A stretch of DNA of 64,000 nt from a phage. The position numbers and the translations under genes are program-made. The notes beneath the pieces were generated by a model that worked only from the letters and a program-made list of their open reading frames with translations, was not told where the DNA came from and did no database searches. Of the stretch, positions 13,808-56,953 are shown piece by piece (positions within the stretch are counted from its first letter, which is position 1; every line of letters begins with the position of its first letter). The stretch is taken from assembly GCA_017686895.1 (NCBI GenBank), contig GCA_017686895.1_4521.1; one strand, written 5' to 3'.

Positions 13808-13813
13808 TAAAAA

Positions 13814-13829
13814 GGAGACTTCGGTCTCC
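13814..13829 (+). terminator. UUCG-tetraloop hairpin (GGAGAC-TTCG-GTCTCC) after gene 41
   Basis: Perfect 6-bp stem, TTCG loop, followed by TTT. Confidence 0.5.
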
Positions 13830-13836
13830 TTTCGGG

Positions 13837-13866
13837 GTTTACATCTTCCTCTAGGCATGATATGAT
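13837..13866 (+). promoter_or_regulatory. Early-type promoter GTTTAC-N18-TATGAT
   Basis: Spacer contains TTCCTCT, complementary to the downstream SD AGAGGAA (13883-13889). Confidence 0.5.
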
Positions 13867-13895: not shown

Positions 13896-14270
13896 ATGAA
13901 TATGTCTCAAGCAATTTTTACTGCAATCACCGAAAACACAACTGTTGAAGTAGTTTCTCCGCTGGCAACCTACGTTATTCTTGCTCCTAAAACTATTGTA
14001 TCTCGTATGGAAAACACAGGCAAACGTATCGTACAAATAGTTGGAGCTGGAAATCAAAAACTTGATTATCTACGAACCATCAAAGCTTACGAACATTTCC
14101 AACTCGAAAAAGGTTCTCCTATCCAGGTAGAACTCGTAAATGGTGATATCGTTCGAGCAATGTTCCATCATTTCTATGCATTGAATGACCCATCTAAAGC
14201 GGTTCGTTTAATTGCATATGACGCAAACCAAAACGAAATCAACGCAGATATATCTAAATTACATTTTTAA
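13896..14270 (+). CDS. Hypothetical protein
   Basis: 124-aa ORF with SD AGAGGAA. Confidence 0.5.
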   Translation: MNMSQAIFTAITENTTVEVVSPLATYVILAPKTIVSRMENTGKRIVQIVGAGNQKLDYLRTIKAYEHFQLEKGSPIQVELVNGDIVRAMFHHFYALNDPSKAVRLIAYDANQNEINADISKLHF

Positions 14271-14299
14271 GTTTACTTCTCCAGTAGTTGTGTTATTAT
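14271..14299 (+). promoter_or_regulatory. Early-type promoter GTTTAC-N17-TATTAT embedded in a 12-bp inverted repeat
   Basis: Arms CTCCAGTAGTTG (14279-14290) and CAACTACTGGAG (14308-14319) flank the -10; the downstream arm contains the SD. Confidence 0.55.
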
Positions 14300-14325
14300 A
14301 GACCTATCAACTACTGGAGAACAAA

Positions 14326-14643
14326 ATGAAAACCATCGATTGTAAAGCAGAATTTAAGATTTTTTATCACGGTTCAAGTAGTTCAGCTAACATCGAAAAC
14401 ATGCTTTGTCCTCCTGAAGAAACAGGAGTTCTGTCTGAAACTGGACGTAAGAAAAACTTGGATCGTGTATTCTTTACTGAAGATATCGGTTTAGCAAAGA
14501 TTTATGCAGGACGAGCAGCACGCTCTTATGGAGGTGAACCACGTCTCTATCGAGTAATTTCTCCGGTAGATGTAGTTCAAATGAATGATACTAAAGGCGC
14601 TACAGTTTATCACGCTGAATGGGCATTTTGCGAGGAAATATGA
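14326..14643 (+). CDS. Hypothetical protein
   Basis: 105-aa ORF. Confidence 0.5.
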   Translation: MKTIDCKAEFKIFYHGSSSSANIENMLCPPEETGVLSETGRKKNLDRVFFTEDIGLAKIYAGRAARSYGGEPRLYRVISPVDVVQMNDTKGATVYHAEWAFCEEI

Positions 14644-14831
14644 GCAAATTAACTAAAGTTACTTTTATCGGTTGGTTTAAAAGCGGTGAGATGTTCACTA
14701 AAGATATCATGTTATCAGGTGATCGCGAAGAAATCGAGTGGGTTACGGTACAACTTGCTGAAGTGAACAATGCATTAGTTAAAGCATTTATTAATGACGA
14801 GAAAGTTTTTGAAGCTGATTTCAGAGGATAA
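14640..14831 (+). CDS. Small protein, possibly Dmd (61.5)-like antitoxin
   Basis: 63 aa from ATG 14640 (SD GAGGAAA, ATGA overlap); position next to gene 41 and motifs KVTFIGWF, NALVKAFI resemble my uncertain recollection of T4 Dmd. Confidence 0.35.
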   Translation: MSKLTKVTFIGWFKSGEMFTKDIMLSGDREEIEWVTVQLAEVNNALVKAFINDEKVFEADFRG

Positions 14832-15788: not shown

Positions 15789-15818
15789 GTTTACATTATA
15801 GATGGACTATAGTATAGT
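15789..15818 (+). promoter_or_regulatory. Early-type promoter GTTTAC-N18-TATAGT
   Basis: Followed by AGTCCTATCAA box; imperfect inverted repeat GGACTA/TAGTCC around the -10. Confidence 0.45.
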
Positions 15819-15847
15819 AGTCCTATCAAATTAACTAAGGAGTTAAA

Positions 15848-18823: not shown

Positions 18824-19345
18824 ATGGCGCACTTTAATGAATGTTCACAACTTATTTCTGGTGTTGATAAAGCAGAAGAAGTTTATTTTAATGCTCTGAT
18901 TCACGAAGATAAAGACCCACTTCAGGTAATGCTTGATATGCAGAAATCTTTACAGGTTCGTCTGGCAAATGACAAGCCTGAACATAACAAACATCCTGAT
19001 GAATTGGCTACTGCTGGTGATGTTGTTGATTGGCTGCGTAATCAGAAAGATTATATTGATGATGAATTCCGTGAACTGTTGACTTCACTTGGTGGTATGA
19101 GCAATGGTGAAAAAGCCGCCAGCAGTGTATGGAAGCCTTGGAAAGCACAACATGCTGAATATCGAAATCGTCGTATCGATGAACTGTCTCCTGAAGACCA
19201 GCTTGAAATTAAATTTGAGATGATTGATATTCTTCATTTCGTTCTGAATATGTTCCAAGGTCTGGGTCTTTCTGCTGAAGAAATCTTTAAACTTTACTAC
19301 TTGAAAAACCAACACAACTTTGAACGTCAGGATAATGGTTACTAA
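18824..19345 (+). CDS. 56: dCTPase/dUTPase gp56 (MazG-like)
   Basis: Starts MAHFNEC like T4 gp56; DKDPLQVMLDMQ, FRELLTSLG, EEIFKLYYLKN conserved. Confidence 0.85.
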   Translation: MAHFNECSQLISGVDKAEEVYFNALIHEDKDPLQVMLDMQKSLQVRLANDKPEHNKHPDELATAGDVVDWLRNQKDYIDDEFRELLTSLGGMSNGEKAASSVWKPWKAQHAEYRNRRIDELSPEDQLEIKFEMIDILHFVLNMFQGLGLSAEEIFKLYYLKNQHNFERQDNGY

Positions 19346-19351
19346 TTAAGT

Positions 19352-19359
19352 TATAAATA
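19352..19359 (+). promoter_or_regulatory. Late promoter TATAAATA upstream of soc
   Basis: Exact T4 late consensus about 30 nt before soc ATG. Confidence 0.55.
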
Positions 19360-19390
19360 CACCTGTAATTAAACAACAAAGGAGTTAATT

Positions 19391-19627
19391 ATGGGTGGTT
19401 ATGTAAACATCAAAACCTTTACGCATCCTGCTGGTGAAGGCAAAGAAGTTAAAGGTATGGAAGTTTCTGTTCCGTTTGAGATTTATTCAAACGAACATCG
19501 GATTGCAGATTCTCATTACCAAATCTTTCCATCAGAAAAGGCAGCTTATTCTACTGTAGTTTCTAATGCAGCTGACTGGAAAACTAAGAACGCTGAAATG
19601 TTTACCCCTACACCAGTAAGTGGTTAA
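19391..19627 (+). CDS. soc: Small outer capsid protein Soc
   Basis: 78 aa; GYVNIKTF, HYQ.FPSEKAAYSTV match recalled T4 Soc. Confidence 0.8.
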   Translation: MGGYVNIKTFTHPAGEGKEVKGMEVSVPFEIYSNEHRIADSHYQIFPSEKAAYSTVVSNAADWKTKNAEMFTPTPVSG

Positions 19628-21139: not shown

Positions 21140-21168
21140 GTTTACATTCCCTCCTCTCGTGTTATGAT
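21140..21168 (+). promoter_or_regulatory. Early-type promoter GTTTAC-N17-TATGAT
   Basis: The G of GTTTAC is the last base of the upstream TAG stop; spacer CCTCC is complementary to downstream SD GGAGG. Confidence 0.5.
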
Positions 21169-21195
21169 AGGCTTATCTTTAAATGGAGGTCTATC

Positions 21196-21777
21196 ATGAC
21201 ATGTCAATCTGAACTTCAAGAACGCGAATATCTCGCAGCACTAATTGATGATAAATTCACTAAACAAGAACAAAACATTCTCTGGGCTTGCACTGATTAT
21301 AAGGAAGACCCGGATTTCCACTATGAATTAGACCATCTTGTTCGTAAGCATATGACTTCTACAGTACCAGTAGAACTCTACCGTGGTGTAACTCCAGAAG
21401 AAGTAGAACGTCTTTCCCTTCTTTCTGTTGGATGTCATTGGTCTCCCGGACGAGTAACATCGTTTACAACAGACTTTGGTACGGCCAGACAGTTCTCTGG
21501 GAGTTGGGAATATCAAACGTACACTATTCTTAGTCTCAGGAATGCTCCGTTCATTTTCGATTACTACCAAAACATGGTTAACATTGTACTCGCCGGAAAG
21601 AACCCTAAGCATGTTATGGAAGAAAAACGTGTTGACGTCCTAGATATGATTGAATCTGAACAAGAATACATGGTCTCAGGTATCTCTAGATTTGAGATTG
21701 TAGAAATTGAAGACTTAGAATATGACCCTTTATCTCGGTTATACAAAATCATTCATTTGAAAATGTTGAATTTTTAG
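21196..21777 (+). CDS. modB: ADP-ribosyltransferase, ModB-like
   Basis: R-S-E ART motifs: LYRG, SFTTDF, ESEQEYMV; T4 order modB-modA in this direction. Confidence 0.6.
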   Translation: MTCQSELQEREYLAALIDDKFTKQEQNILWACTDYKEDPDFHYELDHLVRKHMTSTVPVELYRGVTPEEVERLSLLSVGCHWSPGRVTSFTTDFGTARQFSGSWEYQTYTILSLRNAPFIFDYYQNMVNIVLAGKNPKHVMEEKRVDVLDMIESEQEYMVSGISRFEIVEIEDLEYDPLSRLYKIIHLKMLNF

Positions 21778-27193: not shown

Positions 27194-27222
27194 GTTTACT
27201 TCTCCTCTGGTTTTGATATTAT
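27194..27222 (+). promoter_or_regulatory. Early-type promoter GTTTAC-N17-TATTAT embedded in an 11-bp inverted repeat
   Basis: Arms CTCCTCTGGTT (27202-27212) and AACCAGAGGAG (27232-27242); downstream arm is the SD of the 27249 gene. Confidence 0.55.
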
Positions 27223-27248
27223 AACCATATCAACCAGAGGAGAATAAT

Positions 27249-27773
27249 ATGTTAGTTTACCGCGTAGAACGTAGTTTTTGCACTCAACGTGAATCATTAC
27301 CAGGAATTGCTATCGAAGACGGTAAAGCCGTCAGAATTTGGGAAACCTCTTGGAATAAAGAACCTCGTTCGCCATACGGTTGGTCGGGCACCGACAACTC
27401 TGAAGAAACATGGGAGTTCCTTGATAAGCATGGAATACTCTCAGGTAACTTCTACCATCACGGCGACAACTATAATGTCCCTAATCGTCCTACAGTAAAT
27501 GAAGACAAACTTCTTGAACAAAATATCTTAAGATACCATAGAATTGAGTACACATTTGAATTGAGTGAAGATTGGGCTCAAGGGTTCTATTTTGGATTTG
27601 AAAGCGTTGACGCGGTTTATGCATGGTTTGATGACCAGGTGGATGTTGAACTCTTGAAAGCTAAAGGATACTACATCGCGGTCTATGAAGCACCTGATTT
27701 CATCCTCGGAAGTTGTCAATTAATGTTTAGACGTTCATTGGCAGAACAAGTTGATTTTATTTTGCTAAAATGA
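27249..27773 (+). CDS. Hypothetical protein
   Basis: 174-aa ORF. Confidence 0.5.
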   Translation: MLVYRVERSFCTQRESLPGIAIEDGKAVRIWETSWNKEPRSPYGWSGTDNSEETWEFLDKHGILSGNFYHHGDNYNVPNRPTVNEDKLLEQNILRYHRIEYTFELSEDWAQGFYFGFESVDAVYAWFDDQVDVELLKAKGYYIAVYEAPDFILGSCQLMFRRSLAEQVDFILLK

Positions 27774-36411: not shown

Positions 36412-36441
36412 GTTTACAACTAAGTAGGACTATGATATAGT
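36412..36441 (+). promoter_or_regulatory. Early-type promoter GTTTAC-N18-TATAGT
   Basis: Followed by AGTCCTATC box. Confidence 0.45.
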
Positions 36442-36467
36442 AGTCCTATCTAAAAGAGGATAACATC

Positions 36468-36923: not shown

Positions 36924-36953
36924 GTTTACATCATGGTAGGATTATGGTATAGT
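36924..36953 (+). promoter_or_regulatory. Early-type promoter GTTTAC-N18-TATAGT
   Basis: Followed by AGTCCTATCAA box. Confidence 0.45.
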
Positions 36954-36981
36954 AGTCCTATCAAAACACGAGGAATACAAA

Positions 36982-56890: not shown

Positions 56891-56927
56891 TTTATAACAA
56901 GATAGGGTTATGTTATAGTAGCCCTAT
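56890..56927 (+). promoter_or_regulatory. Early-type promoter GTTTAT-N18-TATAGT with flanking inverted repeat
   Basis: G of the -35 is the last base of the TAG stop; ATAGGGTTA / TAGCCCTAT arms bracket the -10. Confidence 0.45.
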
Positions 56928-56953
56928 CAAATAAAAGTGAAGAGGAGAATAAA

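Follow-up and report, generated by a model that had tools for sequence, protein, structure and literature searches.

An early promoter embedded in a hairpin predicted to sequester the Shine-Dalgarno sequence of its gene: a candidate translational insulator in T4-related phages

The window analysed here, a 64,000-nucleotide (nt) stretch of phage DNA (contig GCA_017686895.1_4521.1), carries at position 14271 a T4-type early promoter lying within an inverted repeat whose downstream arm contains the Shine-Dalgarno (SD) sequence of a 105-amino-acid (aa) open reading frame (ORF), ORF105. Between 13800 and 14700 the window matches Escherichia virus vB_Eco_mar005P1 at 100% identity, and about 150 further Mosigvirus genomes (RB69 group) at more than 95%; by sequence, the window is a Mosigvirus of this group. 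The genes on the + strand run in the order uvsX, 40, 41, a stem-loop, the 124-aa ORF124, ORF105, dmd, 61.4, imm.1, imm and sp, and the region is pre-replicative, with transcription from left to right. The features of the locus are:

13811..13832, + strand: terminator-like UUCG stem-loop 3' of gene 41, a 9-bp (base pair) perfect inverted repeat, labelled terminator in related records
13837..13866, + strand: upstream early promoter GTTTAC-18-TATGAT, which drives ORF124; RB69 orthologue Pe:20971
13896..14270, + strand: ORF124, 124 aa, phrog_10668, Mosigvirus-specific and not at the same position in other genera
14271..14299, + strand: T4-type early promoter with GTTTAC at 14271-14276, a 17-nt spacer, TGn at 14291-14293 and TATTAT at 14294-14299
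14277..14290, + strand: 5' arm (anti-SD) TTCTCCAGTAGTTG, in the -35/-10 spacer
14291..14307, + strand: 17-nt loop, from folding, with the -10 box and the predicted start
14308..14321, + strand: 3' arm CAACTACTGGAGAA, with the SD GGAG at 14316-14319; pairs with the 5' arm
14316..14326, + strand: GGAGAACAAAA, predicted RegB site, an 11/11 match to the RegB/S1 consensus GGAGRAYARAA (Durand et al., 2006, PMC1702504)
14326..14643, + strand: ORF105, 105 aa, phrog_2110, the gene downstream of the hairpin; conserved, function unassigned
14640..14831, + strand: dmd, antitoxin Dmd (Pfam PF17587, E 1.3e-21)

We defined T4-type early promoters by GTTTAC(A/T), a spacer of 17+/-1 nt, TGn, TAnnnT, an AT-rich upstream region and a conserved start region. 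The 14271 promoter has all of these elements (GTTTAC-17-TGT-TATTAT, upstream ACATTTTTAA, start region TATCAA), and the coordinates that a sequence-only reading of this DNA had given for GTTTAC and TATTAT are all correct. Its RB69 orthologue, Pe:20537, is an independent hidden Markov model prediction (Nolan et al., 2006, supplement of PMC1524935). Transcription is predicted to start at ~14306, ~7 nt past the -10 box and within the conserved TATCAA. The late promoter sequence TATAAATA is absent from 14271-14326.

The spacer of this promoter is complementary to its leader. TTCTCCAGTAGTTG and CAACTACTGGAGAA form 14 perfect bp, and a repeat search extends the match to 19 nt at 89%. The sequence-only reading had described a repeat of 12 bp; CTCCAGTAGTTG (14279-14290) does complement CAACTACTGGAG (14308-14319), but the helix is longer than that, at 14 bp, and the distance from GGAG to the ATG at 14326, given there as 8 nt, is 6 nt. 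A 63-nt RNA folds at -21.5 kcal/mol, compared with -9.0 +/- 2.5 kcal/mol for dinucleotide shuffles (z -4.9; 0/200 as good). The 14-bp helix is dominant in a 106-nt context and persists in a 156-nt read-through context. Because the 5' arm lies in the promoter spacer, only RNA made from upstream carries it, and because the predicted start falls in the loop, a transcript from the promoter itself would have the whole 3' arm and no 5' arm, as had been proposed. In RNA from 14306, GGAG is unpaired and there is no significant structure (z -0.27). Rfam returned no family match at the gathering score for this hairpin. On the minus strand of 14261-14328 a match to the mir-2010 precursor scored 27 bits (E 0.034), where the gathering score is 66, and we rejected this identity as a chance resemblance with a sub-threshold score.

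How far such folding would hinder a ribosome was estimated as the energy needed to free the ribosome site (-14 to +4) in read-through RNA (120 nt upstream) versus promoter-initiated RNA, a comparison of leaders that the sequence-only reading had called for. Four promoters are listed, with the difference between the two states (ddG) where it enters the comparison below:

14271: read-through 17.8 kcal/mol, promoter-initiated 3.2 kcal/mol
27194: read-through 21.0 kcal/mol, promoter-initiated 2.3 kcal/mol; ddG 18.7
21140: read-through 18.7 kcal/mol, promoter-initiated 4.4 kcal/mol; ddG 14.2
13837: read-through 7.0 kcal/mol, promoter-initiated 2.6 kcal/mol; ddG 4.4

At 14271 these modelled energies, together with the 14-bp helix, agree with the earlier proposal that read-through RNA would fold over the SD.

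To place this element among its neighbours, every GTTTAC-like/TAnnnT pair in the window was screened; 19 of those on the + strand are closely followed by an SD and ATG, and most of these early-type promoters share TATCAA 5-7 nt after the -10 box. All promoter regions (-45 to -1) were paired with all SD windows (-16 to +3). Perfect 12-nt runs, with duplex energies of -19.2 and -21.1 kcal/mol, came from the cognate combinations at 14271 and 27194, and none of the 342 non-cognate pairs reached that run length or duplex energy. A ddG of at least 14 was found at three of the 19 promoters (14271, 21140 and 27194). The remaining 16 range from -2.2 to 4.4, or, with 13837 set apart, 15 promoters from -2.2 to 3.5, and 49 gene starts without an early promoter reach a maximum of 8.2. 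One of the two top sites among these 49 is soc (ddG 8.2), whose late promoter TATAAATA at 19353-19360 has the classical arrangement with upstream pairing to the ribosome site (window 19343-19393); as the textbook late-promoter case, soc serves as a positive control for the screen. Upstream-SD duplex energies of all promoter-bearing genes did not differ overall from those of non-promoter genes (Mann-Whitney p 0.30), and without an overall shift the feature belongs to a subset of early promoters rather than to all of them.

The two further strong copies are:

27194..27251, + strand: second strong copy, upstream of a MotB.2-like gene, with GTTTAC at 27194-27199, TATTAT at 27217-27222 and ATG at 27249; 5' arm TTCTCCTCTGGTT at 27200-27212, 3' arm AACCAGAGGAGAA at 27232-27244
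21140..21203, + strand: third strong copy, upstream of modB, with the -10 region as 5' arm (21158-21173) and the 3' arm at 21188-21203

The 27194 hairpin, which the sequence-only reading did not name, folds at -23.9 kcal/mol (z -5.0). The annotated MotB.2 start of LR027383.1 maps to window 27232 and the SD-preceded ATG lies at 27249; the 17 nt between them point to indels that set the window apart from LR027383.1, or to a different annotated start. At 21140 the 3' arm covers part of the SD plus the AUG (21196), and the hairpin folds at -22.5 kcal/mol (z -4.1). The shorter pairing that had been pointed out here, CCTCC 21150-21154 with GGAGG 21185-21189, exists, but a different strong helix dominates. 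The other weaker version that had been proposed, TTCCTCT 13846-13852 with AGAGGAA 13883-13889 at the 13837 promoter, is likewise present but marginal (z +0.35, ddG 4.4).

The arrangement recurs in T4; there and in the phage of the window roughly one early promoter in four carries it, with compensating base changes. In a scan of 150 kb with 35 candidate early promoters, ddG was at least 8 kcal/mol at ten: alc, alt.-3, nrdC.8, ndd.4/5, modB, regB, 30.8, gene 1, motB.2 and e.8. Eight of these sites were folded (regB, ndd.4/5, nrdC.8, motB.2, alc, modB, 30.8 and alt.-3) and gave -15 to -25 kcal/mol with z from -2.9 to -5.3. In all folded T4 cases the 5' arm lies between the -35 box and the start and the 3' arm lies over the SD, the AUG or both; the regB and ndd.4/5 stems have G.U positions within the closed helix. 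Hairpins stand before motB.2 and modB in both T4 and the window with differing arm sequences, which indicates that the feature is kept at orthologous loci across genera. T4 denV falls just below the others (ddG 7.2; -18.0 kcal/mol, z -3.5). Its upstream same-strand genes are the late ipIII and ipII, and the hairpin would keep denV silent on late RNA. Primer extension on denV, in the somewhat ambiguous wording of one figure legend (Fig. 5 of PMC1702504), gave promoter-derived reverse-transcriptase stops, which we take to indicate such 5' ends.

If the pairing matters, unrelated copies should keep it while their sequences change. The 60-nt cassette gives 2-6 blastn matches per genome, before different genes in different phages, and the arms of four of these cassettes read:

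T4 denV cassette: 5' arm TCTCCTGTAG, 3' arm CTACAGGAGA
IME08 motB.2 cassette: 5' arm TTCTCCTCATG, 3' arm CATGAGGAGAA
Tequatrovirus F2 cassette: 5' arm TTCTCCTCT, 3' arm AGAGGAGAA
Klebsiella Jiaodavirus cassette: 5' arm UCCUCGAG, 3' arm CUUGAGGA, with one G.U pair

The motB.2 hairpin is thereby found with different arms in three genera, represented by T4, the window and IME08 (CATGAGGAGAA). A search of IMG/VR for relatives of the MotB.2-like protein gave three near-identical loci. A search of IMG/VR with the pattern GTTTACWTCTCC-N20-45-GGAGA, which itself imposes five core pairs, returned at least 48 distinct cassettes in which a proper -10 box and an ATG are present; the counts that follow hold among the matches listed. 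In 28 of the 48, pairing continues inward past the imposed CTCC/GGAG core for 3 bp or more (random expectation ~2%), with ~15 different extension sequences among these 28. Among cognate pairs 48% have a run of 5 bp or more, compared with 3% among non-cognate pairs. Covariation was scored on an anchored gapless pseudo-alignment in which the mid-loop was replaced by AAAA, so that the real sequence is the arms only; a MAFFT alignment of the full-length cassettes was discarded, with several 3' arms out of register. The score was 0.266, compared with 0.110 +/- 0.012 for shuffled partners (0/500) and 0.057-0.104 for slid partners, and 115 cells had changed on both sides, where shuffles gave 64.8 +/- 5.4. 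Covariation reaches even the outermost pair, in which a T following GTTTAC is matched by an A following GGAGA, and an A by a T. Isolated mismatches in the alignment are G.U in 3 cases, A.C in 0 and other in 9, all small numbers; this bias, together with the G.U pairs of the T4 regB and ndd.4/5 stems, mildly favours a sense-strand RNA over a DNA palindrome. Judged from these sequence comparisons, the pairing is under selection: unrelated cassettes retain the helix with differing sequences.

At the ORF105 locus itself the long stem is restricted. Most non-Mosigvirus relatives with a GTTTAC-type promoter have no 124-aa ORF, and their promoter directly follows the gene 41 terminator; it reads GGTTTACATCTCCTGTAGG...TACTAT...CAACTTGGAGAA, with 5-6 bp of complementarity left. 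Three loci without a GTTTAC promoter (L012, L016 and L017) have the same leader CAACTACTGGAGAA and no 5' arm. This comparison makes the 14-bp stem Mosigvirus-specific, and in the genomes compared the stem coincides with an inserted upstream early gene that no terminator follows. Among the Mosigvirus isolates, GADS24 and PhAPEC2 have unchanged arms and a variable loop, and in RB69 the spacer is 16 nt long and the 3' arm is mismatched at one position close to the stem top. In Dhakavirus-like cassettes (L006-L011 and L174), ~80 nt upstream of the ORF105 orthologue, the 5' arm TCTCCTGTAGG is that of T4 denV; with the leader CAACTTGGAGAA the helix is broken there, as would be expected if cassettes had been exchanged by a crossover in the stretch from the -10 box to the SD.

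The surrounding genes fit an early transcription unit whose upstream boundary, in this context, is the stem-loop at 13811..13832. No terminator was called by the terminator scan between the 14271 promoter and either the early promoter at 13837 or gene 41, and from its position promoter 13837 presumably supplies read-through RNA to the 14271 hairpin. The ORF124 stop codon (14268-14270) lies 7 nt upstream of the 5' arm. ORF124 sits between two early-promoter cassettes, resembling the ORFan insertions flanked by promoter-early stem-loop (PeSL) cassettes. ORF105 is 55-100% identical across 50 viral contigs, contains an FYHGS motif, has no counterpart that we found at the same position in T4 and has no match in Pfam, PADLOC or PDB sequence searches. 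For the proteins that the hairpins are predicted to regulate, PHROGs matches are families without known function, and Pfam, PADLOC and PDB were empty. The stop codon of ORF105 overlaps the start of dmd (ATGA); such an overlap suggests translational coupling, and dmd is probably coupled to ORF105.

The SD of ORF105 is also a candidate target of the T4-type nuclease RegB, which is inhibited by secondary structure; 16 structured GGAG sites are resistant in T4 (PMC1702504). In our folds GGAGAACAAAA is free of pairing when the RNA starts at the promoter and paired when the RNA is read-through. In vivo, RegB cleaves the SDs of T4 regB, motB.2 and nrdC.8 (PMC3014915, PMC1702504). Since RegB cuts these SDs and is inhibited by structure, some of these mRNAs must carry an open SD; by analogy, this is the population that a hairpin model predicts. 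The RegB/S1 system and the hairpin target the same 11 nt with the same apparent goal, early-protein synthesis limited to the first minutes, and differ in that RegB is a trans-acting nuclease on accessible sites and the hairpin a cis structure. The hairpin would act on the RNA population that RegB cannot cut, making the two complementary.

The structure of the element, its significance, its recurrence and its covariation are established computationally. From them we infer, with moderate confidence, that the early-promoter cassette at 14271 incorporates a translational insulator, which would serve temporal and dosage insulation. The -35/-10 spacer, free of coding constraint, would encode the anti-SD. 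On RNA coming from promoter 13837, or from gene 41 past its stem-loop, the anti-SD would be made ~30 nt before the SD, and the 14-bp hairpin would close once the SD emerges. The closed hairpin would exclude the 30S subunit, and probably RegB too, and neither ORF105 nor the overlapping dmd would be translated from read-through RNA. RNA from the embedded promoter would begin in the loop without the 5' arm, leaving its SD open to ribosomes and, as a consensus RegB/S1 site, later open to inactivation by RegB. Output of the 105-aa protein would then track its own immediate-early promoter only, neither inflated by strong tandem upstream promoters nor prolonged on delayed-early, middle or late read-through RNA, and dmd would be gated together with it through the ATGA overlap. 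At 14271 the benefit is likely dosage insulation from tandem strong promoters together with the silencing of RNA running on from gene 41. More tentatively, anti-SDs in early-promoter spacers may possibly form a general, unrecognised regulatory layer in Tevenvirinae that leaves about a quarter of early genes translatable from their own immediate-early transcripts only.

A second class of hairpin in the same phages bears on this interpretation. In the window it lies at 15801-15827, 36423-36449, 36934-36963 and 56901-56929 (promoters 15789, 36412, 36924 and 56890), and in T4 (MT984581) at the early promoters 20598 (dmd) and 57977. Here the spacer complements the conserved -10/start region (for example GAUAGGGUUAU/GUAGCCCUAUC), and the helix spans the -10 box and leaves the SD untouched. 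Only read-through RNA can fold into these hairpins (-13.7 to -16.3 kcal/mol, z -1.5 to -4.7), and they resemble the PeSL "stem-loop overlapping -10".

Several observations weigh against the insulator model. Firstly, the nearest upstream promoter, 13837, is also early, so temporal gating is not the whole story at 14271, and the 14271 start site is predicted from the consensus alone. Secondly, the 5-6 bp left in other genera indicate that the hairpin is not essential for the 105-aa gene. Thirdly, the cassettes share ancestry, and the covariation counts are therefore not independent events. Fourthly, since the second class misses the SD, read-through-only hairpins may serve a role other than in translation. 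Lastly, hairpin promoters are not depleted of upstream terminators (2/13 versus 10/40, Fisher p 0.71), as judged with a crude detector that missed the stem-loop at 13811.

One alternative is a PeSL-type stem-loop that attenuates or pauses upstream polymerases or protects the 3' end of the upstream mRNA, and acts as a recombination site, with an incidental SD overlap. Described PeSL stem-loops sit between the -35 and -10 boxes or over the -10, with the SD/ATG at their 3' end, and one of them lowered downstream lacZ in a transcriptional fusion (PMC2839356). The hairpins over the -10 without SD contact in the window and T4, and a lineage-specific ORF124 between two early-promoter cassettes, fit this picture as well. 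However, the 14271 stem is followed by AACAAAAUG (AACAAAAUGAAAACC) instead of a U-tract, and the terminator scan makes no call there, so that the hallmark of an intrinsic terminator is lacking; attenuation that needs no U-tract is conceivable. The SD/anti-SD core is moreover the best conserved part, the covarying extension is always in register with it, and attenuation leaves unexplained why the SD should be the 3' arm in so many independent cassettes. We consider this alternative unlikely.

A second alternative, which we judge improbable, is that the main job of the hairpin is to keep RegB from cutting and destabilising long polycistronic delayed-early and middle mRNAs at the intergenic GGAG, the translation block being a side effect. 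The perfect consensus match of GGAGAACAAAA, the resistance of structured GGAG sites noted above and the GGAG-type SDs at most hairpin sites speak for it. Against it, several T4 hairpin sites are no RegB substrates: the denV SD resists RegB in vivo, which Durand et al. put down to its sequence, with C in position 9 (PMC1702504), the SDs of alc (GGAC) and alt.-3 (GGAA) are poor RegB substrates or lack the A-rich consensus (Durand et al., PMC1702504), and the modB-type helix lies mainly over the AUG. Shielding from RegB is in any case compatible with the insulator model rather than an alternative to it.

In RNA phages, occlusion of an SD is relieved by upstream translation. By the same logic, ribosomes ending ORF124 could melt the 14271 hairpin, making read-through translation of ORF105 dependent on translation of ORF124; the ORF124 stop lies close to the 5' arm, and the upstream stop in other cassettes lies 3-8 nt before GTTTAC. 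From footprint and toeprint geometry, however, a terminating ribosome would cover to about +15 from the P site, or ~14280, and would open at most ~4 of the 14 bp, the other 10 still holding two G's of GGAG, and in other cassettes the arm begins even further from the stop. We regard such coupling as very unlikely. A functionless product of chance or mutation (templated quasi-palindrome correction, or a recombination scar) draws on the orthologous promoters without a long stem in other genera and on the clear exchange of cassettes between loci; it is equally improbable and strongly disfavoured by the fold z of -4.9, the 0/342 non-cognate pairs, covariation over dozens of cassettes and at the orthologous motB.2/modB loci of different genera, and the unchanged arms beside a varying loop in GADS24 and PhAPEC2.

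The insulator model has a close precedent. In T4 e, soc, 49 and I-TevI (and also I-TevII/III, segB and Aeh1 mobE), a helix sequesters the SD and/or AUG on upstream transcripts, and a promoter in or after the 5' arm yields translated RNA without that arm, as is predicted for 14271. This late-promoter geometry controls T4 e, soc, 49 and I-TevI, cutting lysozyme synthesis 100-fold (PMC3014915; PMC2988022), which makes the idea less new than the sequence-only reading had implied. The precedents differ in having a gp55 late promoter and late genes that are "silent early, on late", and genes known to use the hairpin mechanism were all late (Edgell et al., 2010, PMC2988022). By its sequence elements, the 14271 promoter is instead of the sigma-70 early type, its spacer holding the anti-SD, and its logic would be reversed, with translation from the immediate-early transcript only and none from any read-through RNA. 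Thus 14271 has the helix over the SD and the promoter downstream of the arm without the late promoter and late gene; it is predicted to work like the late-promoter class and yet is not a member as that class is currently defined.

PeSL cassettes (Arbiol et al., 2010; Comeau et al., 2014) share with 14271 the make-up of a repeated, exchangeable intergenic unit, with an AT-rich region, a strong early promoter, a stem-loop, SD and ATG; they flank lineage-specific ORFs, and the stem-loops of RB49/phi1 often lie between the -35 and -10 or over the -10. Likewise, 14271 combines a promoter and stem-loop in an intergenic cassette that ends in SD-ATG, flanks ORF124 and has signs of exchange. The PeSL hairpins differ in being short, local and read as terminators or attenuators, and lie upstream of the promoter in the T4/PST type; at 14271 the stem-loop spans the -10 and uses the SD itself as 3' arm, an arrangement that the PeSL papers do not describe, and they discuss neither SD pairing nor an effect on translation. 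Coat-replicase coupling in MS2/Qbeta is similar in that an upstream complement of the ribosome site controls translation, and differs in that translation of the upstream cistron relieves the block, where promoter choice would do so at 14271. In the literature covered, including reviews whose examples all have late promoters, promoter surveys and the RegB study, we found no early promoter in an SD-sequestering hairpin, older T4 papers lying outside the search. The physical mechanism is known; what appears to be new is the class of embedded early promoter, the logic of the regulation and its prevalence across the family.

For temporal gene control in phages T4 serves as the reference, and a cis rule that blinds some early genes to read-through would add a missing piece to it. 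If the model is true, the genes translated from their own transcripts only include regB, modB, alc, motB.2, denV and the ORF105-dmd pair, functions of host takeover and self-limitation, and the model predicts which early proteins are strictly immediate-early. The shut-off of T4 early proteins has been described as incompletely understood (PMC3014915); together with RegB, the hairpins would help to explain why early-protein synthesis stops abruptly although coding RNA is still made from upstream. They would also show how packed tandem strong promoters avoid cumulative over-expression downstream, with the "free" promoter spacer becoming functional RNA sequence, and would offer synthetic biology a design that holds promoter, insulator and ribosome-binding site in less than 60 nt.

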